A program made the translations under genes and the position numbers. Shown here piece after piece: positions 3,516 to 53,448 of a stretch of DNA of 64,000 nucleotides (the stretch's first letter is position 1; each line of letters opens with the position of its first letter). Origin of the DNA: Escherichia virus TH34; sequence record MT446407.1; one strand, written 5' to 3'. Below the pieces are notes generated by a model. The model saw only the letters and a program-made list of their open reading frames with translations, was not told the DNA's origin and did no database searches.

Positions 3516-4555
3516 GCAGCAGTGAACAGAACACCGGAAGCGTATGGGTTGCGGTGACGCAGACCAACTTCCATTTCGATCATCCACTTCTCGTAAGAAC
3601 CGTCTTTAGCCAGTTCAGTACGCTTCGGTGCACGAAGAACCATCTGAGTCCAATCAGAGCTACGGAAGAAGTAAACTGCATCAGTAGGCATCCAACGGTT
3701 AACGATGATTTTATAGCTCTGACCCAGCGGGTCGGTGATGCTATTAACTTCGTAGATGAATTGTTTAGTGTTCTCAAAGATACGCTGACGAGAACCAACA
3801 GAGTTTTCCTGAAGCTTAGCGAAAACGCTAGCGTGAGCAGGGTTAATCATGATGATATCAGCTTCAGAACCTGCGGTATACAGCTGAAGAGTCATATCAA
3901 AGATATCTGCTTCATCAAAGCCTACGTTAGTGGTAGGGTTAGATGCGTTCTGTGCAACTTTAACAGTTACTGCACCGGTATCCGGGTCAGCAGGACCGTT
4001 CTTAGTCTTATCAACAACGCTACCAGACAGACCGCCATGAGCACACAGGAACTGGAAAGCACCAGTCTTACGAGCTGCATGAGTATCATTCAGACCAGCC
4101 AGAGCAGGATCAGCTGCTGAGTTAGTTAGATACTGGTCAGCCAGAACGTCGGTACGAGCCTGACCGGACAGCAAGATTTTCTCGAGGTCACGTTTAATCT
4201 CTTTACCTTTCTTCTCCAGCTGATACATCAGTTCACGACCACGACCGTAGTTAGCGGTGGTGTTAGCAGTATCAGAAACACGAACTACTTTACGCAGGAT
4301 CTGAGTTACGTTAGATTTGATAACAGTCGGTTGCATTTCACCGTCATCAGCGCGAGAGCCTTCAACGTGTGCGTTGTTAGCATCAACACTTGCCAGTGCA
4401 TCGGTCTGCCAGCTGAAAATAGTCTGGTTGATAGACTCTTTACCAGTCATAGACACAAACGGAGTATCTTGCGGAGAGAGGACAGAAATCCAGTTAGCAA
4501 AAGAAAGTTTTTTACCGTTCTGGTCGTAAGATACAAATAAAGTTGGATTTGCCAT
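3494..4555 (-). CDS. major capsid protein
   Basis: 353-aa ORF immediately downstream of the scaffold gene, upstream of the Ig-like extension and a terminator; strong RBS; assignment by position and size. Confidence 0.6.
   Translation of the reverse strand: MANPTLFVSYDQNGKKLSFANWISVLSPQDTPFVSMTGKESINQTIFSWQTDALASVDANNAHVEGSRADDGEMQPTVIKSNVTQILRKVVRVSDTANTTANYGRGRELMYQLEKKGKEIKRDLEKILLSGQARTDVLADQYLTNSAADPALAGLNDTHAARKTGAFQFLCAHGGLSGSVVDKTKNGPADPDTGAVTVKVAQNASNPTTNVGFDEADIFDMTLQLYTAGSEADIIMINPAHASVFAKLQENSVGSRQRIFENTKQFIYEVNSITDPLGQSYKIIVNRWMPTDAVYFFRSSDWTQMVLRAPKRTELAKDGSYEKWMIEMEVGLRHRNPYASGVLFTAAGKVVAA
3509..3515 (-). other. candidate -1 slippery heptamer G_GGA_AAG (minus-strand sense)
   Basis: capsid frame reads gcG GGA AAG gta gtg gcg gcg TAA; -1 frame reads GGG AAA GGT AGT GGC ... 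continuing into the Ig-like ORF. Confidence 0.5.
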
Positions 4556-4595
4556 GTTATGTTAGCTCCTATACTATTTAAAAATAATTTGTCGA

Positions 4596-5675
4596 TTAAT
4601 CTACGAGATACTTAAATGCATCTTCGTGACGAATGCGACCCTCTGAAAATGCCTTGGCAACCTTAGCGTTGTCTGGCGTATTGGAAGTACGAGACTTAGA
4701 AGAGTCGGACTTCACAACCTTACGTGGAGAACCCGGACGTTTAATCTTAGCCATTACCTGTTGCTTACCTTTATCAAATTGGTATGCTTTATGCAAAGCT
4801 AGGAAAATAGACGGACGATTCTCTTTCAAGACTTCTTCTTCTGTAGCACCGAGATCAATTGCATATTGCATCAGATTCTGATAAACACTGTCATCCCAAT
4901 TAGGAATTTCACGTTTCAATACATTAACACATTCGGTACATTTAGCTTGGAAGGCTTGCTGTTCTTTTGCTGCTGCATCTTGCTTGATCTTAACTTGCGC
5001 TTGTTCAAGCTGCTGACGACGAGCAGTGTACTTCTCTAAAAAGCGTTTGTTTTCAACATAGGCTTGTGGATCTTCAACTGCTAGCTTGTCCCAATCAAAA
5101 CCGTTATAATCTTCAATTACTCGGTCTGCTTCTAAGGACGCTAATTCTAATACATCCGCTAAACCACCTACACGCTCTTCAAAAGCTTCAACATGACGCT
5201 GAAGAACAGCTTCCCGTTCAGTCATATCGGAGCCAGTAACATAGCCATTTGATAACTCTTCAATAGTCATCTCACGACCATCAGGAAGGGTGATAACAGT
5301 TTCATAATCTACGTCGAAAGCATCACCTTCTTCGTATTCACTGTCAGTAGAATCATCGTGATCTACATCACTTGGTTCTTCATCTTCAACAACTTCATCA
5401 GAGTCGTCGTCTGAATCACCTTCATCGTCTTCTCCTTCCTCTTCTGAATCATCCCATCCTTCTTCATCTTCGAACGTGAGTTCATCACCCTTACCAAGAA
5501 GGTCGGAATCAAAGTCAAAGTTATCTCCAGTATCTTCTGGAAACTCACTGTCAATGTCCACTTCTGGTTCTTGTTCAGATTCTAATCGACTTAGGTCTTC
5601 TTTAAAAGATCCTTTCAAGTCATCAAGTTGGAGGAATGATTTAAAATCGTTTGGGTCTAAAAATTCATTTGCCAT
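4596..5675 (-). CDS. scaffolding protein
   Basis: 359 aa; highly acidic D/E-rich central part and helical C-terminus; located between portal and capsid genes. Confidence 0.55.
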   Translation of the reverse strand: MANEFLDPNDFKSFLQLDDLKGSFKEDLSRLESEQEPEVDIDSEFPEDTGDNFDFDSDLLGKGDELTFEDEEGWDDSEEEGEDDEGDSDDDSDEVVEDEEPSDVDHDDSTDSEYEEGDAFDVDYETVITLPDGREMTIEELSNGYVTGSDMTEREAVLQRHVEAFEERVGGLADVLELASLEADRVIEDYNGFDWDKLAVEDPQAYVENKRFLEKYTARRQQLEQAQVKIKQDAAAKEQQAFQAKCTECVNVLKREIPNWDDSVYQNLMQYAIDLGATEEEVLKENRPSIFLALHKAYQFDKGKQQVMAKIKRPGSPRKVVKSDSSKSRTSNTPDNAKVAKAFSEGRIRHEDAFKYLVD

Positions 5676-27490: not shown

Positions 27491-28708
27491 ATGTTCCCTG
27501 TAACACTTCAAAGCTGGAAAGAATCAGAAGACGTTGTAACCGTCTGGCCCCCTTGTTATGGTTTCCTGAAAGCAGGTTACTATCAGGGTGGTGATTATGA
27601 CGAAGATGAAGATGGTGATCCTGATTACTATAATACATACGATAGTAATTTCGGCTGGAATATCCGCATCAAGGTGTGGAGTGGAAATATGATGGTTCGT
27701 CAAGGCACTGCTGAAGAGAACGTTCTTGAGAATATGTTGCCTATGTCTGAAATCAAGTATATCTGGAACTCCGGAACACATCTTCCAGCTCACGGTGTAA
27801 GACGTTATGGTGATACTGAATATATCGCTACTCAGTATTTCCGTGAAGGGTTAGAAAATGAAGACCCTCGTCCTCCTTCTCATGTGGAAACATGGGCAGA
27901 AGAAAACAACCGTCCTGATATCACTGATCGTGTTGTTATGGAAACCTTTGCAGCATTCATGGATAAAGACCTTGACTCATGTCTGGTATGGCATGAAGTA
28001 GGGTTCATGGGTGTTTGTACTGATGGCTGTCCCGCTGATCGTGCTCTGTTCTATCTGATGTTGAATCGCACATTCTATACAGATGATGAAAAATCTGCTG
28101 TGTATGAAATGTTGAACAAGATGTATAAGAAGGGCTGGTCTCCTTTAGCCTCTCTTGCATTCAGCCGACTGATCAACTCTTCAGTGGATGTGTTCGGTAA
28201 CGAACGTGTTGCTTTAACAGGGAATGATTACGATTCCTGTATCTTCCAAGCATCTCTGTATACAGTGGGTGTTGGTAGTACGATGATTGAGCCTCGCCAG
28301 ACCAAATGGCGACAGTGTGAATACACTGAAGGTGAAGGTCATCTTCGTGATGAAGACTTCTCCAGTCTGATCTATCGCGGTGAAGGTGTTCGTGATTGTC
28401 GAGTGAACAACTCGATGTTCTTGCCAATCCTTTTGCCTCAATATTGCCATCTGTCGGAAGATACCCGCCCAATCATCACAGAAAAGTCACTCTTGGTTGA
28501 ATTTATCCGAGAGGTGGCTGAATCTGAAACATCTTTTGCTAAAATTGTGTTCGGTTATAACTGGAACAATGAAACAGCTTCAGCTCGAAGCTACAACATG
28601 TATAACATTATCAGTAGTATGTCCAATGGACTGACAGGTAGTAATTATACAGTACGTCCCTCAGAAGAGTGGGAAAACATTTTGGAAAAATTATTCTTCA
28701 ATAAATAG
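27491..28708 (+). CDS. hypothetical protein (cluster member, unknown function)
   Basis: 405-aa ORF with an acidic N-terminal patch; tightly packed with downstream cluster genes. Confidence 0.55.
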   Translation: MFPVTLQSWKESEDVVTVWPPCYGFLKAGYYQGGDYDEDEDGDPDYYNTYDSNFGWNIRIKVWSGNMMVRQGTAEENVLENMLPMSEIKYIWNSGTHLPAHGVRRYGDTEYIATQYFREGLENEDPRPPSHVETWAEENNRPDITDRVVMETFAAFMDKDLDSCLVWHEVGFMGVCTDGCPADRALFYLMLNRTFYTDDEKSAVYEMLNKMYKKGWSPLASLAFSRLINSSVDVFGNERVALTGNDYDSCIFQASLYTVGVGSTMIEPRQTKWRQCEYTEGEGHLRDEDFSSLIYRGEGVRDCRVNNSMFLPILLPQYCHLSEDTRPIITEKSLLVEFIREVAESETSFAKIVFGYNWNNETASARSYNMYNIISSMSNGLTGSNYTVRPSEEWENILEKLFFNK

Positions 28709-28716
28709 AGGCGAAT

Positions 28717-29667
28717 ATGTCAATCTCCGCATCGACTGCTCCGGTAACACCAGCAGAGAACTTTGGTGAGTCAGTGTTCAGAGGGCGAGCTTGTTTTGGT
28801 ACTTTCAACTGTCAGCATATGTATTCTGTTACAGACATTAATGGCGACAGTATCAATCTCTCAAGCCTTCGTGATAGAACTTCAGAAATTGGAGTTATTA
28901 ACTTCTGGCCTCACAATTTTTATGGCGTACCAGCTAAAGATATCGAAAGAGCTTTAGTTGAAGCAACAGACATTTTTAACTCAATGTCTTGCTATAAAAA
29001 CATGTTCTCTGTCACTTCGGTGAACTCAGTTGCCGTGAACCTTCGAGACCACCCAGCAGACAAGGTGTTTACTGGATTAATGACCCTCCGGAGTTATCTG
29101 GATGGGGATTTTATGGGAATGGAGTTCCTTCAGGAAGGCGTTCAAGACAAGGAAGAGTTGCTCAAGCGACAACGAATCGGCTTAGCTTTACGCTTGGCTG
29201 GTTTAAGTCGTAACTTCTTTGGTCGTTGGGATTATTCACATGATGTGGATACTGATGATGAATCAGCAGCGACCTATTTTACCGGTGAAATGAGTGCAAT
29301 CGCATTCTTGCCACTGGTCTGTTCAACTGATGAATTTTCTGAAAACGTATGGGTTCAGAATGTATTTGGTGTTGACGATAACAGAGATGGTTATGTACGA
29401 AACCATAATGACGGAGTTCTCCGCCGTATGGCTCGTCGTCGTGACCAAGACCCTGACTATTACGAGAGTATGAGTGAGTGGTTGCGTCTCTGGTCAATGT
29501 GTGCAGGCCATAAACGTGAAGTATTAGATCAGCGTATGGACAGAATTACTGTTCACAGTTTTATTGAACGCTTGATGCAAGCAGTACCTTCCTCAATGAC
29601 ACCAGAAGAAGCTGGTGCCCGTGTTGTTTCCCTTTTTGATGAACTTGTGGAGTATTACAATGACTAA
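28717..29667 (+). CDS. hypothetical protein (cluster member, unknown function)
   Basis: 316-aa ORF; overlaps the next start by 8 nt. Confidence 0.55.
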   Translation: MSISASTAPVTPAENFGESVFRGRACFGTFNCQHMYSVTDINGDSINLSSLRDRTSEIGVINFWPHNFYGVPAKDIERALVEATDIFNSMSCYKNMFSVTSVNSVAVNLRDHPADKVFTGLMTLRSYLDGDFMGMEFLQEGVQDKEELLKRQRIGLALRLAGLSRNFFGRWDYSHDVDTDDESAATYFTGEMSAIAFLPLVCSTDEFSENVWVQNVFGVDDNRDGYVRNHNDGVLRRMARRRDQDPDYYESMSEWLRLWSMCAGHKREVLDQRMDRITVHSFIERLMQAVPSSMTPEEAGARVVSLFDELVEYYND

Positions 29668-30466
29668 GCGTGCTTTCCTTATTGGTTCTGACCCTGAAAT
29701 GTTTGTTCGTACTGCTTCTGGTGTTATCACCTCTGTGGCTGGTAAGCTGGGCTGTTCTAAAGATAACAAAATCGATCTGGCCCCTGATGTTCGTCTTCAA
29801 GAAGACAACGTTCTGGCTGAATTTGATATTAACCCACAGAAAGGGTTCGAAGCGTTTGATGATAACATCCAGCGTGGTATTGATCTGACCAACAAAGTTC
29901 TTAATGAACGTGGTATGGAAGCTGCACTTGGGATTAGTTCTCATGTGTACACTTCTGAAGAGCTGCAATCATTCCATCCATCAGCCTTTGTGTTTGGCTG
30001 TACTCCTGATTTCAACGCCTTCACTGGTCAGAAAAACCCATCTCCGGTAGCGACAGACAAAGGTCTGCGTACTGCTGGCGGTCACGTACACCTCGGTGTT
30101 GCAGGGTCTTTGGAAGTAACTCGACAGACTCAGATGATGCTGGGTGTTCTCTGTGATTACTTCCTGTCACTTCCAGCAGTAATTATGGATAAGGACACTC
30201 GTCGTAAAGAGCTTTACGGCAAGGCATCTGCTATTCGTTATAAAGATTATGGTATTGAATACCGTTCTCTGTCGAACTTCTGGATTGGTGAACAGTCCAC
30301 TCGTAAGTTTGTTTACGATCAAGTTGATAAGGTTATTCAGGGCTGTGATATGGAAATTCTCATGTCTCTGCACTCCCGTCTGCCTATCGAAAAGCTTCAC
30401 AACATCATCAATAGCAATGATGTTAAAGAAGCGGATAAGTTCTCCTCTAAACTCCAGATTATCTAA
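29660..30466 (+). CDS. amidoligase-like protein (glutamine-synthetase-like COOH-NH2 ligase fold), paralog 1
   Basis: about 268 aa from ATG 29660; acidic motifs GSDPEMF and EFDINP, GGHVHLG (H-x-H) and GIEYRSL, the last two echoed in ORF 31099 (STHVHMD, VEFRIS). Confidence 0.4.
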   Translation: MTKRAFLIGSDPEMFVRTASGVITSVAGKLGCSKDNKIDLAPDVRLQEDNVLAEFDINPQKGFEAFDDNIQRGIDLTNKVLNERGMEAALGISSHVYTSEELQSFHPSAFVFGCTPDFNAFTGQKNPSPVATDKGLRTAGGHVHLGVAGSLEVTRQTQMMLGVLCDYFLSLPAVIMDKDTRRKELYGKASAIRYKDYGIEYRSLSNFWIGEQSTRKFVYDQVDKVIQGCDMEILMSLHSRLPIEKLHNIINSNDVKEADKFSSKLQII

Positions 30467-30475
30467 GGTGTTATC

Positions 30476-31102
30476 GTGAGCCTGTTAAGAGATTTTCAGC
30501 ATTATTATTGCGGAACATGGATTGCCCAACGTGCAGAACGAGGGATTAATTTACCTCTTTATGTACTCAACGTGAACCAAGCAAACCGCTTTGGAGAAGA
30601 TGACTTCTCTCACGAAGCAGAAATGGCCTTAACTTTTGAAGTTGAACGCTGGTCTAAGAACGCCGAAGGGCAGTTTGAACGACAGGTTGTTCAGGGCATT
30701 CCTGTGTTTGATCAAAGCCTTATTCTGGAATCTCCAGATGTGGGATACTTACAACACGGCAACAACATGGTAAGCTGGACTCATATCAACCCTGTTCGTC
30801 AGCGAGCTAAGGGTCTGATGGGGAACAAATTACGTGGTGCACCTCCTTCAATGGGTCGTTCGATTCCGGGAGAGCTGGTGTATAATCTGTTTAATCCTGA
30901 CTTCGAAGGTCTGGTTACTCGCTTCATCTACATCAACCCTGTCGATGGTAAAGTTTATTACAAAGGGGCACTTGTAGGTCAAGTTGATCTTTCTGCTGGT
31001 TACGGCGACAATGGTCGTCAATCTTTAAATCTTCTGGAGAAGTTCAAGCATATTTCTTCAGATCTGTCATCATATAATGTAGAGTTGGTGGAAACGTTAT
31101 GA
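30476..31102 (+). CDS. hypothetical protein (cluster member)
   Basis: 208-aa ORF; stop overlaps the next start. Confidence 0.5.
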   Translation: MSLLRDFQHYYCGTWIAQRAERGINLPLYVLNVNQANRFGEDDFSHEAEMALTFEVERWSKNAEGQFERQVVQGIPVFDQSLILESPDVGYLQHGNNMVSWTHINPVRQRAKGLMGNKLRGAPPSMGRSIPGELVYNLFNPDFEGLVTRFIYINPVDGKVYYKGALVGQVDLSAGYGDNGRQSLNLLEKFKHISSDLSSYNVELVETL

Positions 31103-32199
31103 CAACCGTAGCACAAGTTTTTGGATACCGTAATGCTCGTCTGGCTGAGCCGCACCCAAGCATCGCTTTTCAGTGTGGTATTGGCATCGAGCTGGAAGTT
31201 GAAGGAACCTCTGAAATTGATGCAGACCTTTGGGTTTGTACTGAAGATGGTTCACTTCGTGATGGCTGTGAGATGGTTTGTGCACGGCCTTACAACGGTG
31301 TAGAATTGCTTAGTGCTATTAACAATCTGAGTGAAGCAGTACAAGACTCTGAAGCTGAAGGGACTTGGCGCTGCTCTACTCACGTTCATATGGATATGCG
31401 TGACGCTGATAGTAACATCCTGAAGAAAGTAATTCTTGGATGGACGTTCTATGAAAAGATGATGTTCAAATGTTCTGGATACCATCGCTATCGTAGCAAC
31501 TTCTGTCCTGCCTTTGCTGTTGTTCAAGCACAGGTAATGAATGCTTCCGCAGCGTTCAACCGAGATGGTGAAGCCTTCTTCAATACTCTTGTTAATAGCT
31601 GGGACAAGTACACCTCCCTTAACCTATTACCTCTGGCTCAGTTTGGTTCTGTTGAATTTCGTATCTCAGAGCCAAAGTGGAAGAAAAGCCAACTCCTTAA
31701 TCTGGTCAACCGCTTCTTAGTTCTCAAGAAACTGGCTGTTGAGTATGCAGATTTGGATAATGAAGCATATGTTGAGAAACTGAATGAGCTACGCTTCGCT
31801 CCTATGATTCAGTATCTGCCTCTGGACTACACACCTAATGATGATGACCTGACTGGTGGTTATCGTTTGGCTCGTGATATTCTGTTCTGTCGTGAACATT
31901 CTGTTACTCTGGTTGGTCGTGTTCGTGTACAGCAGACCGGACCTGATGGTGAAATCCTTATCAACTTGCGTGATATGGGTGACTTCTACGGTTTCTTGGG
32001 ATATGTACGTGGTAATGCCAACTCTATTTATGAAGAGATCATGACCTATTACACCCCTCAGATTGAAAACACTCGAATCGCAACGGTTCGTGAAATTCGT
32101 CACATGTTTGCTCTGATGCGTGAATCAGGTAGCAGTGATGATAACGTCACTGGTTACATTCCAGACCATCTGGAAATGCAATTAGAACGACTGCTGTAA
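31099..32199 (+). CDS. amidoligase-like protein, paralog 2
   Basis: 366 aa; GIGIELEVEG (E-x-E), EDGSLRDGCEMV, STHVHMD, VEFRISEP motifs consistent with glutamine-synthetase-like amidoligases. Confidence 0.5.
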   Translation: MTTVAQVFGYRNARLAEPHPSIAFQCGIGIELEVEGTSEIDADLWVCTEDGSLRDGCEMVCARPYNGVELLSAINNLSEAVQDSEAEGTWRCSTHVHMDMRDADSNILKKVILGWTFYEKMMFKCSGYHRYRSNFCPAFAVVQAQVMNASAAFNRDGEAFFNTLVNSWDKYTSLNLLPLAQFGSVEFRISEPKWKKSQLLNLVNRFLVLKKLAVEYADLDNEAYVEKLNELRFAPMIQYLPLDYTPNDDDLTGGYRLARDILFCREHSVTLVGRVRVQQTGPDGEILINLRDMGDFYGFLGYVRGNANSIYEEIMTYYTPQIENTRIATVREIRHMFALMRESGSSDDNVTGYIPDHLEMQLERLL

Positions 32200-32276
32200 C
32201 ACAATGGGCGCTCTGATAAAGGGCGCATTTAAAGGTTAATTAGATGAAAGGGTTTACCCTTCAGGTGGATTAGAAA

Positions 32277-34310
32277 ATTTGTGGTATCGTATTAGCTGGG
32301 GGCAACATGACCTCCACAGACTTAGACGTATTCAACCAGCTTCTGTATGCTGGAGTCTTCCGTGGTCAGCACTCAACTGGTGTGTTCGGTCAGCGTAAAG
32401 GTGATGAAAAAGTATTTTCTTATAAAGAAGCACTTCCTTCCTATGCCTTCATGCTCCAGACAGGGTACACGAATCTTACTAAGGGGCTTACGAACTATGT
32501 AGTTCCTCCATCGTGGATTGTTGGTCATAGCCGACATGCCACACGTGGTGCGGTCAATGCTCGAAATGCTCACCCATTCTCTCATGGTGACATTACTCTG
32601 GTTCATAATGGTACACTGTTAGATCAGGAACTGTTACCAGATCATAAGAATTTCGAAGTTGATAGCGAAAACATCTGTCATTCAATCAACACCATCGGTG
32701 CAGCAGAGACTATCCAGAAGTTGGATGGTGCGTTCACTTTAATCTGGCATGACGCCAAAGACAATACTCTGCATATCATTCGTAACGATGAACGTCCTTT
32801 CCATCTGGCCCGTTGTGGTCTAGATTGGTTTGGTGCTTCTGAAGAAGATATGTTGATGTGGATTCTTAATCGTTCCAAGTCACACAAGAACCGTATCAAT
32901 GATCACTTTGAGTGTAAAGTGGGAACTGAATACATCTTTGATTTGTCTGGCAACCGTATGACTCTGACTCAAGAGGTGGAGCACAAGCTTCCGGTTTTTA
33001 CGGTAACGAGTCGCTGGGGCGGCTATTACTCGAACTCTTCTCTGTATCAGAACCAACAGACAAACAAATCAAGCAGCAGCACAAGCGACATTTACGGAAA
33101 CAAAGACGACAAGCCCGGCGTGACAAGCGGAGACATTCGTCGTCGTAAAGCGATTGAAGATCAGAATAAACTGGCTGCCGATCGTGGTCTTCCGTATCGT
33201 CGTGACGGTCGTGTGGATATCATTCCTCATGAGTTCCACGCTTATAACAACACTGACCGTGGTAAGATGGTTGGTTATATTTATGATGATGCTGCTCAAG
33301 AGTATGTTGAGGGTGATGTTCATAATGTAGCCAAGAGTGAATACTTGAAGGCTCTCGAAAACCCAAAGGTAGTGTATCGCGGGACAGTTGCTTGTATCTC
33401 CGAAGTGGACAGTATGATTCGCCTCGTACTCACTTCAGGGCTGTTTGTTGATGCTACCGATAAGGAGCCTCAAAGCACTACCGCTGATTTTGATGATGAT
33501 ATCCCTTTTGATTTAGAAGACTCCTTCATCACTAAGAATGGTGTGGAAGTCACCCGTAAGTTCTGGGAATCACATTCTCATGGTGATTGTGGCGGTTGTG
33601 ACAAGCATATTGAATGGAAAGATGCTAAGAAAGCTGTGTTCGCTTACCAAGCATATTGGCATCCGGCCTGTTTCGAAGCATTGTCCAAACCGTCTGAAGA
33701 AGATGAAGACATTCCTTTGGGTGTCTGTGCTGTATGTGGCAATGTTAAAACTGATTTCGAGTTTGATAACGAAATGAGTAAACTTCGTGGTGAAGATATT
33801 TGTTATGTCTGTGCCAAAGAGATCAAAGACAAAGTGACTAACACTACATTGTCTGAAGGTTACATTTGGACTAAAGCAGTTGACACAACCAACCCACGTC
33901 GCCCTGAAGTAGCAGTTCGTGTTGATCAGCGTATGCTTAGCCGGATGATTGTAATGGTCAGCTCAGCTAAACGTTCTGGTGACATTGAATTGTCTGATGT
34001 TCCAAATTCTTATTTGGAAAAACGTGGTGGTGATACCTATGCCATCTCTGTTTATGGTCCAAAGAATGCCCCAAAGGAGGTGCCCGCTGAGAAAGCGGAA
34101 ACATTTCCAGAAAAGCAAACAACTCTCCGAAAAACAGTTGTCAGTTACGACGGACAACGAACAGCTGAGTTCACAAAAGCCCTCTGGACTTCAATTGGGT
34201 TTTGTGCGGTCTGTTATAAACAAATTCCGTGGCGTGATGCAGAAATTTGCTCACTGAACAAAGAAAACAGGGTGATCTGTAATTCAGATTACTGTAAAGG
34301 TAAACATTAA
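32277..34310 (+). CDS. class-II glutamine amidotransferase (Ntn-hydrolase)-like protein with C-terminal zinc-ribbon region
   Basis: GAT-II motifs RGQHSTG, LVHNGTL, DGAFTLIWHD, IRNDERPFHL; the canonical N-terminal C-G-I-V is encoded at 32280 just upstream of the first ATG (32307), preceded by ATT (32277) and SD AGGTGG (32263-32268); C-terminal half has several C-x2-C pairs. Confidence 0.7.
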   Translation: MCGIVLAGGNMTSTDLDVFNQLLYAGVFRGQHSTGVFGQRKGDEKVFSYKEALPSYAFMLQTGYTNLTKGLTNYVVPPSWIVGHSRHATRGAVNARNAHPFSHGDITLVHNGTLLDQELLPDHKNFEVDSENICHSINTIGAAETIQKLDGAFTLIWHDAKDNTLHIIRNDERPFHLARCGLDWFGASEEDMLMWILNRSKSHKNRINDHFECKVGTEYIFDLSGNRMTLTQEVEHKLPVFTVTSRWGGYYSNSSLYQNQQTNKSSSSTSDIYGNKDDKPGVTSGDIRRRKAIEDQNKLAADRGLPYRRDGRVDIIPHEFHAYNNTDRGKMVGYIYDDAAQEYVEGDVHNVAKSEYLKALENPKVVYRGTVACISEVDSMIRLVLTSGLFVDATDKEPQSTTADFDDDIPFDLEDSFITKNGVEVTRKFWESHSHGDCGGCDKHIEWKDAKKAVFAYQAYWHPACFEALSKPSEEDEDIPLGVCAVCGNVKTDFEFDNEMSKLRGEDICYVCAKEIKDKVTNTTLSEGYIWTKAVDTTNPRRPEVAVRVDQRMLSRMIVMVSSAKRSGDIELSDVPNSYLEKRGGDTYAISVYGPKNAPKEVPAEKAETFPEKQTTLRKTVVSYDGQRTAEFTKALWTSIGFCAVCYKQIPWRDAEICSLNKENRVICNSDYCKGKH

Positions 34311-34321
34311 GAGGTGAAGTT

Positions 34322-34555
34322 ATGGAAGTTCGTAAATTGATGTTGGATAACGTTGTAACCACTCGACGTATCCCAATGACAAGCACAGGATGTGATAACC
34401 TTCGAGCTATTCAGAAATGGATGCAAGAAGGTATTGGGGGACTGGTTAACTCTCCAGTTGAAATCCCTTTCCCAACCGTTATCAATAACGTGTTGGCTGA
34501 CTATGTGAAATTGAAGGGGATTAAAGTTGAGCCTCATGTCAAGCAAGGGAGCTAA
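34322..34555 (+). CDS. hypothetical small protein
   Basis: 77-aa ORF with RBS gaggtgaag. Confidence 0.4.
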   Translation: MEVRKLMLDNVVTTRRIPMTSTGCDNLRAIQKWMQEGIGGLVNSPVEIPFPTVINNVLADYVKLKGIKVEPHVKQGS

Positions 34556-34757
34556 GCCTCACCTGACAATGCTGGAGTATCAACAACTCCGACTTCAACA
34601 ACTGGTAACGGAGCAGCGAAAGCTGTATCCGTTTGCTTTTAACCTAATTGATTCACCAAGCGATGACCAAGAAGACGAGATGTTCTCCAAGTATTGGGAA
34701 ATCGAAGTTAAAATTCAATCCTGTCGTAACGAAATTCTTAAACTAAAAGGTATCTAA
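34527..34757 (+). CDS. hypothetical small protein (start uncertain)
   Basis: 76-aa ORF overlapping the previous one; alternative start near 34569. Confidence 0.3.
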   Translation: MSLMSSKGAKPHLTMLEYQQLRLQQLVTEQRKLYPFAFNLIDSPSDDQEDEMFSKYWEIEVKIQSCRNEILKLKGI

Positions 34758-34759
34758 AA

Positions 34760-36007
34760 ATGACTACTCGTATCCGTGTTCTTCCGTATGGCCCTTCTGA
34801 TTCTGTTAACGCTCTGGTAACTGCCATTAGTGATACTATCCGTGATGAACGTATCAACGCTAACGTAATGGGTCTTCTTTCTGAGAACAGTCGCTGGCGT
34901 TCTCGTGAGGGTGATGTGGTTGTGAACTACGGGAACCGCCGCTATCCTGAATCCTTCTTTGGTTCTGCAACTGTTCTTAACCGTACCGCAGCCTTACACA
35001 TGGCAGCGAACAAACGTCGTGCTTTCAGCGTGATGGACCAAGCAGGTGTTAAAACTGTTGAGTATACAGATGTTCAAGAGATTGCTCAGGAGTGGTCAAA
35101 CTCTGGCAACATTGTGTATGAACGTCATGAACTGACTGGTCACTCTGGTTCGGGTATTATTGTTGTTGAGCCTCGTGATTCAGTTGGTCAAGCTGAACTG
35201 TACACCAAAGGTATTCAAGGCCCACGTCGTGAATGGCGTGTCCATGTGTTCAAAGGTGCAATCACCTATGTTCAGAAGAAAATTCGTCGTAATGGTTATC
35301 GTGAAGACCCTAACTATCGTGAAGATGTTCGTAACCATCACACTGGTTGGGTTTACTCAAGCTCTTTTACGGATGTTCCGAACGATGCATCTCTGATCAA
35401 CGCAGTGAAGGCCGTTGAATCGATGGGTCTGGATTTTGGTGCAGTTGATATCATTACTAAAGGTCGAGAAGCATGGGTACTGGAAGTTAATACAGCACCG
35501 GGCCTGACTGGTACAACTCTGGATACCTACCGTCACAACATCCTTGAGTTTGTTAAAGCTCAAAACCCTCTCTATACTCCTCAGTATAAAGTGGTTTACC
35601 AGACTCCTGTTGAAGCTCCAATTGAAGATGGAGATGGTGAATTGGTTGCTGACAGTGAAAGTGCTGATGATGAAAACTTCGCACTGGAAGGCCAAGTCGC
35701 ACAGCCGGTTGATTCAGTGGATGTAGTTCCTGAAGAAATGCAACTGGAAGGTCAGATGAATACTCAGACAATCCGTAATGCACCTACTGGTTATGTGTTG
35801 TCTCGTGGTTACTGGATTGCAGATATTCGTCATGTTCATAACAACCTGCAACCTAATGCAATGTCTGCCAATGTCATTCTGTTCTGCGATGGTCGTAACT
35901 TCTACCGCAGTGGCTGGAACGTTCCGGTTCATCCGCAACAAGTCCACAACCCTCGTAAGTTAGAGTCTGTAACTGTTGAAGGTAGTGAAGTGGCAGTAAC
36001 TCTGTAA
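34760..36007 (+). CDS. ATP-grasp superfamily ligase
   Basis: 415 aa; GHSGSGIIVVEP (Gly-rich loop), EWRVHVFKG, DFGAVDIITKGREAWVLEVNTAPGLTG motifs typical of RimK/glutathione-synthetase-like ATP-grasp enzymes. Confidence 0.7.
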   Translation: MTTRIRVLPYGPSDSVNALVTAISDTIRDERINANVMGLLSENSRWRSREGDVVVNYGNRRYPESFFGSATVLNRTAALHMAANKRRAFSVMDQAGVKTVEYTDVQEIAQEWSNSGNIVYERHELTGHSGSGIIVVEPRDSVGQAELYTKGIQGPRREWRVHVFKGAITYVQKKIRRNGYREDPNYREDVRNHHTGWVYSSSFTDVPNDASLINAVKAVESMGLDFGAVDIITKGREAWVLEVNTAPGLTGTTLDTYRHNILEFVKAQNPLYTPQYKVVYQTPVEAPIEDGDGELVADSESADDENFALEGQVAQPVDSVDVVPEEMQLEGQMNTQTIRNAPTGYVLSRGYWIADIRHVHNNLQPNAMSANVILFCDGRNFYRSGWNVPVHPQQVHNPRKLESVTVEGSEVAVTL

Positions 36008-36027
36008 TTAAACAAAAGGAATTTGTA

Positions 36028-36270
36028 ATGTTGTCTATCGAAGATTTGATCAGTCGTGGAATGACCGAACAAAAAGAACCTCTGATTGTTGGTTCTCGTA
36101 AAGCTATTAACCAACTCTGTGAAGAGTTTGGAATCACAAACAAGAGAATGATTGGTAATCAGTTCTCTGCAATTGTCACCTTCCTTAAACGAGGTGATAA
36201 ATATTCAATGGAATGTGTTGAGCGTATCATCGCAATTGCACAAGAAGATAAGGGAGTAACAACTCTGTGA
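36028..36270 (+). CDS. hypothetical small protein
   Basis: 80-aa ORF. Confidence 0.4.
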   Translation: MLSIEDLISRGMTEQKEPLIVGSRKAINQLCEEFGITNKRMIGNQFSAIVTFLKRGDKYSMECVERIIAIAQEDKGVTTL

Positions 36271-36452
36271 ATAAATACACAATCATGTTTCGTACAGTAA
36301 ACTCAGAAGGTAATATTCAATCTCTAGATATTCAAGCAGATCGCTTTGAATCACTTGGAACAAGTGTTAACTTCTTCCGAGGAGTAGAGTTGGTAGGTAC
36401 ATTCCAATCTGACGTGTTGACTGGTGTGATCAAACACTTCGAAGTAGAATAA
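36267..36452 (+). CDS. hypothetical small protein
   Basis: 61-aa ORF. Confidence 0.35.
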   Translation: MNKYTIMFRTVNSEGNIQSLDIQADRFESLGTSVNFFRGVELVGTFQSDVLTGVIKHFEVE

Positions 36453-36517
36453 TTTGCTTTAGCCTCTTCGGAAGAGGGGGCTAGTTCAAATTTAACTGAA
36501 ACACAAAAGGTAATATA

Positions 36518-36949
36518 ATGTCTGATAAAGTATTAGTAGCAACTTACGGCAGCTTGAGAAAAGGTCAACACAACCACGCTATCAATGCTCGTGCCGGTGG
36601 TGTGTCTATTGGTGAGGGTTGGACAGTGAACAACTGTAACCTGTATCAGTATTGCACAGCATACTTCCCAAGTGTGTCTCTGGAGCACGACAGCAATGGC
36701 AAGCCTGTTCGTGTGGAAGTATTTGAAACAACTCAAGCTGGTTTGGAAGGTCCGTATGACGGTCTGGAAGGTTATCGTGGTAAAGACAATCCATACACTT
36801 TCTACAATCGTACACTAATTCCAGTAGTGCTGGATAGTGGTGAAACTGTGGAAGCATGGATTTATCATATCGACGAAGAACAAGATGTTCTGGTTGAATC
36901 TGGCGACTGGACAGCGTATCTGGCAGGTGATCAGGATGACAGTAACTGA
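36518..36949 (+). CDS. gamma-glutamyl cyclotransferase-like (AIG2/GGCT fold) protein
   Basis: 143 aa; N-terminal ATYGSLRKGQHNH (YGSL motif) and downstream DGLEGY with a candidate catalytic Glu. Confidence 0.7.
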   Translation: MSDKVLVATYGSLRKGQHNHAINARAGGVSIGEGWTVNNCNLYQYCTAYFPSVSLEHDSNGKPVRVEVFETTQAGLEGPYDGLEGYRGKDNPYTFYNRTLIPVVLDSGETVEAWIYHIDEEQDVLVESGDWTAYLAGDQDDSN

Positions 36950-37142
36950 GCGACAGAAGCTGAGAAAGCTCGAGTCTGACTACTTAAAGTTACGGTGGAA
37001 GATTAACCGCTATGACAAGTTTGTCAGTATGCTTGACCGCAATAAACATTCTGAAGATTTTATCATGAGAACCCAATCAGCTTTACAGGGTTTTAAAAGT
37101 CTTCAAGATGATGTGTGGGAAGAAATACGTTCGTTTTATTGA
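36936..37142 (+). CDS. hypothetical small protein
   Basis: 68 aa from ATG 36936 with RBS aggtga. Confidence 0.35.
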   Translation: MTVTERQKLRKLESDYLKLRWKINRYDKFVSMLDRNKHSEDFIMRTQSALQGFKSLQDDVWEEIRSFY

Positions 37143-39513: not shown

Positions 39514-40950
39514 ATGATTAAGATTCCATTGTCTGAATTAAACCTTCAAGAAGGAGAAGCCCTCAGTGTAGGGCTTGACCTGATTCGTAATTTGATCAGA
39601 GATAACGTAGTCCCTGATGGTATCTATCCTGTTATTGCGGGTGGTGCTATCCGTGATACGTTCTTCCAAAATCGAACTCCGAATGACGTTGATATCTTCC
39701 TAGTTCAAGGAGGATTTCGTTGGAACACTCGTCAGGAAAACAGCCCTGCTAACGTGGGTAATGCTGCACTGTTCCTTGACAACTTCTTGTCTTGGACAGA
39801 GAGTAAAGGGCTTCAAACTACATCTCGCCTAGTTCAGCCTGTTAGTGGGACAAATTACGCTGAAGCACTTTTCACTTTCCAAGAGATTTTGGAAGTGGAG
39901 ATTGACGAAGTGAAGATTCAGATGATGATTAACCTCCCTCTGGATATGGATACTCTGAGAGGTCGCTTCCCTATGATTTGTCAAGGGTTTATGACTCTCG
40001 ATGATATGTATGTGTCGAACGAAGGTATGTTTGCAATGGCATATACTAATGATATCCCTGTGGTGACAAGTCGTGACATGAAGTATGTCCACAAAAAGTG
40101 GCCTGAAGCAACAGTTGCAGTTTACAGCAGTTCTACTGAGTATATGCACCTTGCAATGGGAGCTTTTGGTGAACCAGAAGTTCATCTGATCAGTGATTTA
40201 GTTGGGCCTATGGCTGGTGTAAACTTGTATCAGAATCAACGTCGCCACTACACCTTGAAGATGATGGAAACTGTATTAAATATTCCTCAGGAAGCGGGTC
40301 GTAACTATCTGGATGAAGAGGTTAACCTACAGACAGATTGGTCTAGTGAATTAACCACTATTGGTGTTGAAGCAATTACGCAGCCTTGGACTCCGGGAAC
40401 TGACAGACGTGACTCTTGGCAACAGACAAGATTCGCAGCACCTGCTACAGAGGCACCTCGTGATACTTTCACTGGTAGTTTTGGTAGTGCCCGTTCTTCT
40501 GGAATGGGTACTCGTACATGGCACGTCACTCATGATACAGGTGGAGTAACTGTTCGACCTGCTTCTTCTCCATCTATGGGTGATTTGCAGCGTTCCCGTC
40601 GTTCATGGGAAACAGTTAGCTCTGTTGTTCAGGGTCTACGTTCTAGTGATATAGAACGTGTAGAAGTTGGTGATTTGCCAACCCCTACAGAAGATCGGGT
40701 AGCAGCTATAGCGGCTCGTGAAGCTGCTCGTACTGGCTTTGCATCTTTAGCTAACGACGCTCGACCTGTTGGTCGTCGTAATGGTCTGGCTCATTCTAAC
40801 ACTGCACTTGGTGCAGAACTCCGAGCAACAGCTCGTGAATTAGTTGGTGAACTTGATAGTAACTTAGCAGGTGTTACGCTGACTCGTGAAACAGCTCGTA
40901 ACATGATTAACAATTTGACATCATCTGTACAAGGAAACAGAAACTCATGA
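39514..40950 (+). CDS. Pol-beta superfamily nucleotidyltransferase (CCA-adding / poly(A)-polymerase-like head) with low-complexity C-terminal half
   Basis: 478 aa; GGAIRD...DVD signature near N-terminus; C-terminal about 200 aa rich in S/T/R/A. Confidence 0.5.
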   Translation: MIKIPLSELNLQEGEALSVGLDLIRNLIRDNVVPDGIYPVIAGGAIRDTFFQNRTPNDVDIFLVQGGFRWNTRQENSPANVGNAALFLDNFLSWTESKGLQTTSRLVQPVSGTNYAEALFTFQEILEVEIDEVKIQMMINLPLDMDTLRGRFPMICQGFMTLDDMYVSNEGMFAMAYTNDIPVVTSRDMKYVHKKWPEATVAVYSSSTEYMHLAMGAFGEPEVHLISDLVGPMAGVNLYQNQRRHYTLKMMETVLNIPQEAGRNYLDEEVNLQTDWSSELTTIGVEAITQPWTPGTDRRDSWQQTRFAAPATEAPRDTFTGSFGSARSSGMGTRTWHVTHDTGGVTVRPASSPSMGDLQRSRRSWETVSSVVQGLRSSDIERVEVGDLPTPTEDRVAAIAAREAARTGFASLANDARPVGRRNGLAHSNTALGAELRATARELVGELDSNLAGVTLTRETARNMINNLTSSVQGNRNS

Positions 40951-43980: not shown

Positions 43981-44454
43981 GTGATGTTATACGGTAATTT
44001 GGAATACAACCCTGAAACTGGAGACTTCTTTAGGAATAGCAAAAAGCTAGGAGGAAAGAGGAGCAAGTATGCAACCCTTCGGTTTCAAGGTAAAGTAAGA
44101 AAAGCACATGTGGTTGCTTGGTTTATTTATTATGGGGAGTGGCCTACTTCTCAAATAGACCATGAAGATGGTAATAAGAGGAACAACTCAATCTCTAATC
44201 TTCGATTAGTAGACACCTCTACTAACTGTCACAATCAGTTTGGTGCAAGATCTTCAAACATACAATCAGGTTTTCAAGGGGTTAAAGTTGTTAAGTACAA
44301 ATCAGGCACTATTCGATATAGAGCAGTTATTTGTATTAATGGCAAAGATATACACCTAGGGATGTATGGAACTCCTGAAGAAGCACATCAAGTCTATATA
44401 GAACGGAAAAAGGAACTTTTACGTGAACGAACAACTAACAGCAACATTGATTGA
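43981..44454 (+). CDS. HNH homing endonuclease
   Basis: 157 aa; H-x-(D/E)-G-(N/D)-x-x-N-N motif DHEDGNKRNNSISNLRLV. Confidence 0.65.
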   Translation: MMLYGNLEYNPETGDFFRNSKKLGGKRSKYATLRFQGKVRKAHVVAWFIYYGEWPTSQIDHEDGNKRNNSISNLRLVDTSTNCHNQFGARSSNIQSGFQGVKVVKYKSGTIRYRAVICINGKDIHLGMYGTPEEAHQVYIERKKELLRERTTNSNID

Positions 44455-45935: not shown

Positions 45936-46166
45936 ATGAAAGTTTGGATATTGACACGAGAGATTAACCAGTATGACCAAGATGGTGCATATTTTGAAGC
46001 AGTCTTTCTGAATAAACCAACAGCTGAGCAATTAGCAGAAGCTGGTGTATCTTCCTATTGTATTGACTATACGTTAAAACAAACCCACTCTGATGGCTCT
46101 TGTGGTGGTCGGTCTGAACACATGGAAGATGAATGGTGGCTTTTAGAAGAGATTGAGGTTAAATAA
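45936..46166 (+). CDS. hypothetical small protein
   Basis: 76-aa ORF. Confidence 0.35.
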   Translation: MKVWILTREINQYDQDGAYFEAVFLNKPTAEQLAEAGVSSYCIDYTLKQTHSDGSCGGRSEHMEDEWWLLEEIEVK

Positions 46167-46487
46167 ATGATCAACGATAATACATTTAGGACTGGTAACG
46201 GAAACGAGATTAGTCCTGCTGAAGTGATTAAACGACACAGAACGCAGATGCTTATCCATTCCTATTTGTATTATTGGTTGGATGACCCAATCTGGTCTGA
46301 TGACAAATGGCAACAAGTGGCTGATGACTTAACCACTTTACAAGAGATGTATCCTGAGCCTATTGAATTCTTTGATTCAGAGTTCAATGGATGGAATGGC
46401 TCTACTGGTATGCACCTCCCTCATGACGAGCGTATAGCTTGTATGGCTACCGAAGTATATCGTTTACATAAGGACAAATCTATCTGA
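46167..46487 (+). CDS. stand-alone NAD-dependent DNA ligase domain-Ia-like protein
   Basis: 106 aa; LIHSYLYYWLDDPIWSDDKWQQVADDLTTLQEMYPEP resembles the LigA N-terminal Ia segment (YY.LD.P.ISD.EYD.L...L..LE...PE); no adenylation domain. Confidence 0.45.
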   Translation: MINDNTFRTGNGNEISPAEVIKRHRTQMLIHSYLYYWLDDPIWSDDKWQQVADDLTTLQEMYPEPIEFFDSEFNGWNGSTGMHLPHDERIACMATEVYRLHKDKSI

Positions 46488-46665
46488 AATGTTTTAAATG
46501 TGAATCCACACTTCTCCATCTGGACTCGAAAGTAATACGAGAGCTTGCTAAAGGCTCTCCGACGAAAGGGAAGAATAAGAAATTTGTCGAAGTTAAGGTT
46601 ACAGGTACTCATTGTTCAGAGTGTAAATCCTGTAGCTACACGTATGAAGAACTTGGAGGTAGAAA

Positions 46666-47403
46666 ATGAATCGCAGAGAAACTCGTAGAGAAGCACGGAA
46701 AGCAGCTCGTCGTGGTGAACAGGTGACTAATAAAGGTAAACGTGAGTATCAAGAAGTTGTTCTCGCTAAGCCTGTAGTTCCTCAGAATCAGTTTCAATCT
46801 GAACTGCTCAATGCTATCAAGACTAAACAAGTAGTCTTTACGGATGCTCCTGCTGGATGTGGTAAGACTTATGTTATCACAACAACTGTTATTGATGCTC
46901 TGAAAAGTGGGAAGATTCAAAAGATCATCCTAAGCCGTCCTGCTGTTGGTATGGGTAATTCACTTGGGTTACTTCCCGGTGGGTTGCGTGAGAAGTTCGA
47001 ACCATACCTGATGCCAATCGTTGATGTTATCACTCAGCGTTACGGTAAAGGCTTCTACGAGTGTCAAATTGGTAATGGTAACATTGAGTTCGTACCTCTG
47101 GAATACCTCCGTGGTCGTTCATTCAATGACGCTATTGTGATTGTTGATGAGTTCCAGAACACTACTCCTGATGAAGCATATTCAATCATGACCCGTCTTG
47201 GTGAAACCTCTCAGATGTTCTGTATGGGTGATACTAACCAGCATGACATGCGTGGTGAGAGTGGTTTGGAATGGGCTACTGACTTCATTGATCGTCATGA
47301 CTTATTTGAGTTTGCTGCTTTGGTTGACGGTGAGTCAGATGATATTGTTCGTTCAGGTTTCTGTAAAGCTATTGTTAAAGCAATGGAATCTGAAAAATCC
47401 TAA
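46666..47403 (+). CDS. phoH: PhoH-like ATPase
   Basis: 245 aa; Walker A DAPAGCGKTYV and ILSRPAVGMGNSLGLLPGGLREKFEPYL matching the PhoH core. Confidence 0.85.
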   Translation: MNRRETRREARKAARRGEQVTNKGKREYQEVVLAKPVVPQNQFQSELLNAIKTKQVVFTDAPAGCGKTYVITTTVIDALKSGKIQKIILSRPAVGMGNSLGLLPGGLREKFEPYLMPIVDVITQRYGKGFYECQIGNGNIEFVPLEYLRGRSFNDAIVIVDEFQNTTPDEAYSIMTRLGETSQMFCMGDTNQHDMRGESGLEWATDFIDRHDLFEFAALVDGESDDIVRSGFCKAIVKAMESEKS

Positions 47404-47767: not shown

Positions 47768-48262
47768 ATGATTCCGATTTCCGACTACTTGTCATACGAC
47801 CTGGATACTGTTTTATTGATTTTTACCGAATCTAGCTCTAAAGGTAAGAAATGGAATAAATCACATCCGGGAAAAGTGGCAGGGGCTGTTGATGAAAAAG
47901 GGTATATCAGAGTTTACTTTGAAGAGAGGAGATGGAAAGCTCACAGACTTATAGCTTCTGTGCTCATACCTAACCCTGAAAATAAACCACAAATTAACCA
48001 CATCAATGGTAACAAAAGTGATAATAGGTTAGAGAACCTAGAGTGGGTCACTGGTCATGAAAATATGCAACATGCTTTTTCAACAGGTCTTAATGTTGGT
48101 AAAGAGAGGGATGCTAATGGAATGACTAAAATCAACACATTGGATGTGGAGAAGATCAAGAGTTTATATGTTAAAGGCTCTACCACTCATGGAACAAGAG
48201 CACTAGGTAAGATGTTTGGCGTAAGTCACACAGCTATCCGACATGCTTTAAGCTCAAGTTAA
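47768..48262 (+). CDS. HNH homing endonuclease with AP2-like DNA-binding region
   Basis: 164 aa; NHINGNKSDNRLENLEWVTGHENMQH. Confidence 0.65.
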   Translation: MIPISDYLSYDLDTVLLIFTESSSKGKKWNKSHPGKVAGAVDEKGYIRVYFEERRWKAHRLIASVLIPNPENKPQINHINGNKSDNRLENLEWVTGHENMQHAFSTGLNVGKERDANGMTKINTLDVEKIKSLYVKGSTTHGTRALGKMFGVSHTAIRHALSSS

Positions 48263-48267
48263 TATAA

Positions 48268-48297
48268 GGCTACCCATTTCGGGTGGCCTTTTCTTTT
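48268..48297 (+). terminator. rho-independent terminator
   Basis: ggctaccc-atttc-gggtggcc followed by ttttctttta. Confidence 0.55.
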
Positions 48298-52684: not shown

Positions 52685-52827
52685 AAGGTTTAAAGTCTGG
52701 CTAGACGAAGGAGCTGAATATCCTGAAAGTTCTGGCTGGAGAGTGATTCTGGAAACAGATGATAGGGAAGAGGCTGAAACGAAAGCTGAATCCTTCAACT
52801 ACTCATATTACGAGGACACGTACGAGA

Positions 52828-53448
52828 ATGGCTGAAGTTTACTTTGCAGGTGATGGTCACCTAGGCCATCGTAACATCTGTAATTTTAGAAAGAAGTTTA
52901 GCAGTATTGAAGAACATGACAAAGCTATCCTAGCAGCTTTTGACCATGTTACTAAACGTGATAAAACTTTCTTTACAGGTGATTGGGTGTTTGAGAGATA
53001 TGCACTTGATGTTATCGCTGAAGTAAAAGGAGAGAAACATCTTGTCCTAGGAAACCATGACAGATTAGAACTTCTCCCTGATATGATGAAAGTCTTTAGA
53101 CACATCAGTGGTGATTATAAATACAAAGAGTTTTGGGTAACTCATATTCCTATTCACTCTGATGAAATGAGAGGAAAGTATAATATCTATGCTCATACTC
53201 ATAACTCTACTATTAAAGATTGGAGATACTTTTGTACTTCTATGGAACAAATTGATTATAGAGCTGTGTCTCTGCAAGAGATTAGAAAAGAACTGGAAAG
53301 TAGGAAAGAGTGGGTAGCTTCTTTATTACAAAAAGATTATCCAATTACCAGCGAAGTACAAGAGATGTTAAGCAAGCAAGCTGAATCTAACTTACCTTTT
53401 CAGAGAACAGTAGAACAAACTAGCTTTAAAGGTCTTTTAGAATGGTAG
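52828..53448 (+). CDS. calcineurin-like metallophosphoesterase
   Basis: about 206 aa from ATG 52828; motifs YFAGDGHLGH, GDW and LGNHD. Confidence 0.65.
   Translation: MAEVYFAGDGHLGHRNICNFRKKFSSIEEHDKAILAAFDHVTKRDKTFFTGDWVFERYALDVIAEVKGEKHLVLGNHDRLELLPDMMKVFRHISGDYKYKEFWVTHIPIHSDEMRGKYNIYAHTHNSTIKDWRYFCTSMEQIDYRAVSLQEIRKELESRKEWVASLLQKDYPITSEVQEMLSKQAESNLPFQRTVEQTSFKGLLEW

Follow-up and report, generated by a model that had tools for sequence, protein, structure and literature searches.

A stand-alone version of the DNA ligase-like N-terminal NAD+-binding domain, termed Nlig-Ia, was described by Iyer, Burroughs, Anantharaman, and Aravind (Viruses 2022; PMC9503650, section 3.5.1), who found it as a solo protein in 81 phages and presented ECBP2_0056 as the exemplar. 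Eighty of these 81 phages are without any ligase, the ligand-binding residues are conserved in the solo proteins, and two roles were proposed in silico, namely an NAD+ sensor or a shield that protects NAD+ from NADase effectors (PMC9503650). The corresponding domain Ia of the NAD+-dependent ligase LigA is tethered to the nucleotidyltransferase domain, as in the structures from E. coli (2OWO and 5TT5) and E. faecalis (1TA8 and 1TAE), whereas solo Nlig-Ia is not. The role of NAD+ in the conflict between phages and bacteria is a very active field, and the counter-defense systems NARP1, NARP2, and NARP3 likewise concern NAD+ in this conflict, possibly as a response to the same selective pressure. 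However, the NARP systems are enzymes or transporters that rebuild NAD+, while Nlig-Ia lacks a catalytic domain and is unrelated to them in sequence. In the literature that we searched, we found no experimental work on solo Nlig-Ia or on PF22745, the Pfam family that represents it.

The 2022 publication already covered the family, the solo nature of its members, its exclusion from phages that encode a ligase, and the idea of an NAD+ sensor. The value of the present analysis lies in refinements and in the correction of annotations. The points that we add to the published description are an invariant C-terminal motif in a module that LigA lacks, two replacements in the pocket (LigA D36 to Gln and E34 to Lys), a fusion to a helicase, and an apparent coupling to a zinc-ribbon gene and phoH; PhoH and the helicase fusion are absent from the 2022 paper.

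The DNA analyzed here, referred to as the window, is a 64,000-nt stretch of sequence record MT446407.1 and derives from an E. coli podophage of ~77 kb that belongs to the phiEco32 group (Gordonclarkvirinae). Its nearest relatives in nucleotide identity are TH42 (94.6%), Bas88 and TH43 (96.3%), and ECBP2 (92%; genus Suseptimavirus). A preliminary description of the window, made from the letters and a list of open reading frames, had pointed out an ORF for a 106-aa protein, and we confirmed its boundaries, strand, and ATG start (Table 1). The ATG is abutted by the TAA of the upstream ORF (46164-46166), as read directly from the sequence. The gene is orthologous to ECBP2_0056 and to phi32_62 of phiEco32. 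The protein is identical to ECBP2_0056 at 102 of 106 residues (96%), and the gene order of ECBP2 matches that of the window (ThyX, Nlig-Ia, and PhoH, with other genes between). Like the described solo proteins, it matches the profile over the full length, has a solo architecture, and is encoded by a ligase-less phage, with no substantive difference. The window protein belongs to an already described and named family and is effectively the same protein as ECBP2_0056. Bas88 encodes a 99% identical protein (Bas88_0047) and is a member of the BASEL collection of E. coli phages, which makes ligand-binding and knockout work on the family straightforward. No NARP-type product is annotated in Bas88.

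Table 1. Positions of the solo Nlig-Ia gene, its parts, and neighboring features in the window
Feature	Position	Strand	Evidence
478-aa protein between the polymerase exonuclease subunit and dCTP deaminase	39514..40950	+	phrog_12715 'nucleotidyltransferase', E=4.3e-155
GAGG Shine-Dalgarno sequence, 8 nt 5' of the ATG of the Nlig-Ia gene	46155..46158	+	Direct sequence reading
Solo Nlig-Ia gene, 106 aa, ATG start	46167..46487	+	ORF listing; PF22745, E=7.7e-34; phrog_6466, E=3.7e-38
Residues 16-66, helix-loop-helix homologous to LigA domain Ia (E. coli LigA residues 3-53)	46212..46364	+	hhalign, 97.4%
Predicted nicotinamide-nucleotide site: Y35, Y36, D45, W48, Q49	46269..46313	+	Conservation and column mapping to LigA
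Invariant motif F73-x2-W76-x-G78-S-T80-G81-M-H83-L84-P85	46383..46421	+	Invariant columns; outside the LigA-matched part
Third helix, residues 88-105, family-specific	46428..46481	+	AlphaFold2; PF22745 coverage in solo proteins, not LigA
Zinc-ribbon gene (CxxC...CxxC), 61 codons, CTG start, unannotated in Bas88 and ECBP2	46484..46669	+	phrog_14369, E=4.6e-25, positions 2-61/61
phoH-like P-loop ATPase gene	46666..47403	+	phrog_170, E=7.7e-82
Intrinsic-terminator-like hairpin, 10-bp stem with 6 GC pairs, then a T-run	48266..48290	+	Only convincing terminator in 43.5-49.5 kb

The preliminary description took the product for a stand-alone protein similar to LigA domain Ia and left this similarity to be judged by profile searches, in which it proved significant. 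The window protein matched PF22745 ('Nlig-Ia, DNA ligase-like N-terminal NAD+-binding domain') with 116.7 bits over profile positions 1-91 of 92. Full-length E. coli LigA matched the same model through its residues 4-54 (44.8 bits, E=2e-11), which is also above the curated gathering cutoff of 27 bits. When a profile of 53 family members was compared by hhalign with a profile of 31 LigA N-termini, the probability was 97.4% with E=1.1e-11. The AlphaFold2 model contains helices at residues 17-37 and 45-61, an alpha-helical hairpin that is superposable on solved Ia domains; Foldseek superposed the predicted model on LigA over ~47 residues at 0.6-1.1 Å. When the PDB sequences were searched with the protein alone, the LigA matches were no more than marginal (E~0.2) and were mixed with STN1, so that it is the profile and fold evidence that carries weight. 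LigA domain Ia and the solo family have in common H18, Y20, Y22, Y/H23, D26, D32, L42, and an aromatic residue at position 35 (E. coli numbering). The Pfam match, the match of LigA to the same model, the hhalign comparison, and the superposition are four independent lines of evidence that establish that the resemblance to LigA domain Ia is real. A sub-threshold match of two family members to Imm41 (PF15592) was rejected as spurious, because Imm41, described as having an alpha+beta fold and mixed toxin associations, is unlike the all-alpha Nlig-Ia.

The remaining parts of a ligase are missing from both the protein and the phage. A Pfam search of the 106-aa protein detected no PF01653 adenylation domain, OB, zinc-finger, HhH, or BRCT domain (for comparison, E. 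coli LigA scores 370 bits against PF01653), and the KxDG motif is absent from the sequence on direct reading. Searches with E. coli LigA and T7 ligase (tblastn and phmmer) against the window and the complete Bas88 genome found no ligase core of the NAD+ or ATP type; the ~13 kb of the phage genome outside the window were covered through relatives only. The sole match in these searches was the Nlig-Ia ORF itself, via LigA residues 12-53, and the Bas88 annotation contains no other ligase. We also considered the 478-aa 'nucleotidyltransferase' as a hidden ligase core, and rejected it: the protein has no Pfam match, is recognized only by phrog_12715, and gave no ligase-like match. The earlier statement that the protein cannot be a ligase is upheld by the lack of the catalytic lysine motif and the core domains and by the lack of a ligase core in the window and Bas88. 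The phage brings its own replisome (a primase/helicase plus a family-A polymerase whose exonuclease subunit is separate), and since it encodes no ligase, it would need the LigA of its host.

The predicted nicotinamide-nucleotide site of the solo family combines residues shared with LigA and systematic substitutions. Five residues of E. coli LigA, Y22, H23, D32, Y35, and D36, are reportedly essential for its reaction with NAD+, according to work attributed to Sriskanda and Shuman in 2002. These positions map to Y35, Y36, D45, W48, and Q49 of the window protein, respectively, all of which are invariant in 53 of 53 family members (37-86% identical to the query). Hence Y22, H/Y23 (Tyr in most LigAs and His in E. 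coli), and D32 are kept, whereas Y35 and D36 are replaced. The replacement of Tyr35 by Trp48 is conservative and is fixed in the solo family. That of LigA-invariant D36 by Gln49 is non-conservative and is found in all 53 members, and two further positions are changed nearly as consistently: LigA-invariant E34 is Lys47 in 44 of 53 members, and E46 is Gln59 in 52. Two aromatic residues stack on the nicotinamide ring in LigA (review PMC7470946), and these stacking residues, Y22 and Y35, correspond to the invariant Y35 and W48 of the family. The pattern of substitutions suggests that the shape of the pocket is probably retained while its charge is reduced. Because D36 is reportedly required for the reaction of LigA with NAD+ and is Gln in the family, the ligand or its binding mode may differ; the ligand may be NMN, NAD+ in a different binding mode, or a close analogue.

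The C-terminal part of the protein has no counterpart in LigA. The LigA match spans only positions 2-52 of the 92-position PF22745 profile, while the window protein also matches the C-terminal segment, and the hhalign alignment to LigA ends at residue 66 of the window protein. About 40% of the protein (residues ~67-105) is thus a family-specific module absent from LigA. Where LigA has the invariant D56-S-P-x2-R-V-G linker (DSPTQRVG in E. coli), the solo family has a longer, different conserved loop and the third helix. The motif in this loop, F-x2-W-x-G-x-T-G-x-H-L-P in its general form, is among the most strongly conserved elements of the family: F73, W76, G78, T80, G81, H83, L84, and P85 are invariant in 53 of 53 sequences. 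Together with H31, Y35, Y36, D39, D45, W48, Q49, A52, and L55, they make up the 17 family-invariant residues, all of which are present in the window protein. In the AlphaFold2 model, the loop (residues 62-87) is predicted to be ordered, with a block pLDDT of 85-95, and is without regular secondary structure. In a BFVD fold search, matches to the whole fold (TMq 0.75-0.89) were restricted to other solo proteins and a single helicase fusion, and most full-length viral NAD+ ligases aligned over only ~40-52 columns.

The family has many members and, judging from its conservation pattern, is under strong constraint. An exhaustive search with the family profile yielded, at 50% identity, 990 representatives with E<=0.001, of which 542 had E<=1e-10; nearly all are 75-190 aa long and carry no effector domain. 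At least 226 sequenced phage records contain a member, comprising 87 of Escherichia, 59 of Arthrobacter, 37 of Clostridium, 16 of Erwinia jumbo phages, 10 of Rhodococcus, and others. The hosts belong to the Proteobacteria, Actinobacteria, and Firmicutes, and this breadth over three phyla is compatible with a ligand, or a host target, that is universal. Many GenBank records label these solo proteins of ~100 aa as 'DNA ligase' or 'NAD-dependent DNA ligase' (e.g., Bas88_0047, phi32_62, and the Arthrobacter and Clostridium genes). These labels are wrong, because every catalytic domain is missing. Among the longer members, seven had no Pfam match in their extensions, two of these have in common a stretch similar to phrog_13900 ('minor head protein'), and one metagenomic homolog has a C-terminal CPSC...CWSC extension.

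A different architecture was found in the Rhodococcus phages ReqiPepy6 (CL92_gp052; positions 3959-5587 of the locus compared) and ReqiPoco6 (Gp102), in which Nlig-Ia forms the N-terminus of a 542-aa protein and carries the motif as FDGSTGFHLP. The rest of this protein is a phage DNA helicase (phrog_62, E=2.9e-63, with weak DEAD, ResIII, and Helicase_C matches), and the ReqiPepy6 protein is nevertheless annotated as 'DNA ligase'. The full-length fusion occurs in only nine phage records. No Nlig-Ia was found within 6 kb of the orthologous helicases in Gordonia, Arthrobacter, Streptomyces, and Lactococcus phages, and the fusion is therefore clade-specific, a hint rather than a general linkage.

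The gene sits in a module for replication or nucleotide metabolism in every lineage examined. In the window, it lies within a long co-directional block of a thioredoxin-like gene, ThyX, small ORFs, Nlig-Ia, and phoH, with the family-A DNA polymerase farther downstream. Arthrobacter phage Soondubu has the order primase/helicase, Pol I, Nlig-Ia (directly after Pol I), and DUF7169. In Clostridium phage CS43, NrdD and NrdG flank Nlig-Ia, and DnaB, primase, and dUTPase are encoded nearby. The surroundings of the gene include thymidine kinase and DHFR in Erwinia phage AH06, and RNR, dCMP deaminase, and a redoxin on a metagenomic contig. On metagenomic T4-like contigs it lies between PhoH/PDDEXK/DUF932 and gp59/gp32. 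In this lineage (L020, L021, and L022), PhoH and the PDDEXK nuclease are ~5 kb upstream and gp59/gp32 are downstream, and in two of the contigs (L020 and L022) the gene is placed between an SNase-domain gene and DUF8361. Proximity to PhoH thus recurs in a second lineage, whereas adjacency to PhoH is seen only in the Gordonclarkvirinae. No adjacent partner gene conserved across lineages was found in the loci compared.

In the window, the 178-bp 'gap' between Nlig-Ia and phoH holds a zinc-ribbon gene that ORF finders had missed, with the translation LKCFKCE...HCSECKSC.... Its product is homologous to phi32_61 of phiEco32, which has no Pfam match at E<=0.01, hence none to the LigA zinc-finger model PF03119. 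The start codon is ATG in phiEco32 and CTG in the window, Bas88, and ECBP2. The CTG overlaps the stop codon of Nlig-Ia (cTGA) and stands 9 nt after AAGGA, and the stop codon of the zinc-ribbon gene in turn overlaps the ATG of phoH (ATGA). From these overlapping stop and start codons, Nlig-Ia, the zinc-ribbon gene, and phoH look translationally coupled in the clade to which the window phage belongs. A scan for promoters and terminators gave nothing above chance adjoining the Nlig-Ia gene.

The ThyX-to-phoH block is flanked by two ORFs on the + strand (43981..44454 and 47768..48262) in which HNH-type motifs are discernible by eye (DHEDGNKRNN...NLR and INHINGNKSDNRLENLEW). Both are apparently absent from Bas88 at these positions, and the terminator-like hairpin listed in Table 1 lies directly 3' of the second. 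These ORFs look like homing-endonuclease insertions, and they probably explain the gapped alignments of the window to its relatives (84-93% coverage, in three pieces).

The explanation that we favor, giving it about an even chance, is that the protein is a non-catalytic nicotinamide-nucleotide-binding module that acts as a sensor or regulator. This is essentially the proposal of Iyer et al. (PMC9503650), with the qualification that the genomic setting and the fused helicase point to DNA replication and not to an accessory counter-defense locus. The preliminary description had likewise suggested binding of NAD+/NMN and sensing of NAD+ depletion, in agreement with the in silico proposal, but had missed the family-specific module, the substitutions in the NMN site, and the existing name of the family. 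The first two helices, like the part of LigA that holds the NMN half of NAD+, would bind NAD+, NMN, or a close analogue, with Y35 and W48 sandwiching the nicotinamide ring and D45 serving as the equivalent of LigA D32. The W-x-G-S-T-G-M-H-L-P loop and the third helix could complete the pocket, replacing what the nucleotidyltransferase domain supplies in a ligase; alternatively, they may present a surface through which a partner senses whether ligand is bound. As such, the protein would be a small ligand-dependent sensor or regulator within the replication and nucleotide-metabolism program of the phage, reporting, for example, a collapse of NAD+ caused by the NADase defenses of the host. Candidate partners are the host LigA, the putatively co-translated zinc-ribbon protein and PhoH ATPase, or a helicase. 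The N-terminal fusion to the phrog_62 helicase is the arrangement expected for a sensor or regulatory module. On the other hand, the pocket differs from that of LigA (D36 to Gln, E34 to Lys, and E46 to Gln), and a single domain of ~100 aa has no evident output and no adjacent partner conserved across lineages. The genomic context, moreover, is one of replication and nucleotide metabolism and not of recognizable counter-defense loci.

The main rival explanation, which we regard as unlikely, is that the protein is a trans-acting partner of the host LigA. Solo Ia would dock on the nucleotidyltransferase domain at the place where LigA's own Ia closes during adenylylation, and would serve either to pass on scavenged NAD+ under NAD+ depletion or to recruit LigA to the ligase-less replisome of the phage. 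A phage that has replication genes and no ligase must use LigA, and the published count of 80 ligase-less phages among 81 (PMC9503650) points in this direction. So do the position of the gene among replication genes in several lineages (Soondubu, CS43, and the T4-like contigs) and the helicase fusion in the Rhodococcus phages. The additional motif does not vary among phages whose hosts are very distant from one another, as expected for a universally conserved target such as LigA. However, the tethered Ia of the host LigA would have a large advantage in local concentration, and most small and medium-sized phages are ligase-less anyway, so that the exclusion may largely reflect this base rate. 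An outright takeover of LigA by the phage, in which NAD+ is captured by the protein's own complete pocket, made up of the Ia hairpin and the invariant loop, and the protein docks in trans or tethers LigA to phage replication proteins, has in our estimation a similarly modest chance, roughly one in five. If true, the takeover would keep Okazaki fragments on phage DNA sealed when NADase defenses collapse the NAD+ pool. It would be counter-defense of a new kind, shielding one essential NAD+-consuming enzyme and not the pool, and the protein would be the first known trans-acting cofactor domain of a ligase.

We consider it improbable, though less so than the explanations that follow, that the protein is a counter-defense sponge or shield, sequestering NAD+ or an NAD+-derived signal or product against NADase-based or Thoeris-like defenses. 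The known phage sponges Tad1 and Tad2 are typically small single-domain ligand binders, which counts for this possibility. NAD+ is, by estimate, a metabolite in the millimolar range, and stoichiometric shielding by a protein is therefore implausible; the signals of Thoeris, cyclic ADPR isomers, are without the nicotinamide moiety that domain Ia recognizes. Phage counter-measures to NAD+-depleting defenses are common and varied, and the shielding of NAD+ is among the two published proposals (PMC9503650). Nevertheless, the gene is embedded in replication and nucleotide-metabolism modules and not in accessory regions, and a sponge is hard to square with the helicase fusion.

Inhibition of the host LigA, also raised in the preliminary description, could take the form of a decoy Ia that blocks LigA adenylylation and so halts the replication and repair of host DNA. 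Competition of a free Ia-like domain for the docking surface of Ia on the nucleotidyltransferase domain is conceivable in principle, but the outcome would be self-defeating, because the phage has no replacement ligase and its replication, as reasoned above, would require nick sealing. Among the roles that had been suggested in that description, we judge this one the least plausible, and we place it at a very low probability.

Still less credible is a reader of 5'-NAD-capped RNA that directs capped RNAs to a helicase or ATPase (PhoH or the SF2 helicase). The NMN moiety recognized by domain Ia is the exposed part of the NAD cap, and some PhoH-family proteins act on RNA. The apparent coupling to the zinc-ribbon and PhoH-like ATPase genes and the SF2 helicase fusion would be circumstantial evidence in its favor. 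However, the fused helicase is annotated in PHROG as a DNA helicase, and the adjacency to PhoH is confined to the Gordonclarkvirinae, PhoH being ~5 kb away in the one T4-like lineage. Finally, a decayed remnant of a phage NAD+-dependent ligase gene, which the many 'DNA ligase' labels in GenBank might suggest, can be dismissed with near certainty, given the 990 clusters at 50% identity, the 17 invariant residues, the conserved C-terminal module that LigA lacks, the clean start, stop, and Shine-Dalgarno sequences, and the absence of ligase-core remnants downstream.

Some further genes of the window are recorded here as observations in their own right. At ~27100..36950 (+), corresponding to Bas88_0068-0080, there are genes for an amidoligase, a COOH-NH2 ligase, a glutamine amidotransferase-like protein, an ATP-grasp (RimK-like) protein, and a gamma-glutamyl cyclotransferase, with the names taken from the Bas88 annotation; the cluster looks like a system for peptide or metabolite modification. 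A GGACT gene is also present near Nlig-Ia in an unrelated metagenomic phage. The title of a 2026 preprint reports phage phosphatases that counter RES-mediated NAD+ depletion. The window encodes a calcineurin-like phosphoesterase at 52759..53448 (+), identified by a weak Metallophos match.
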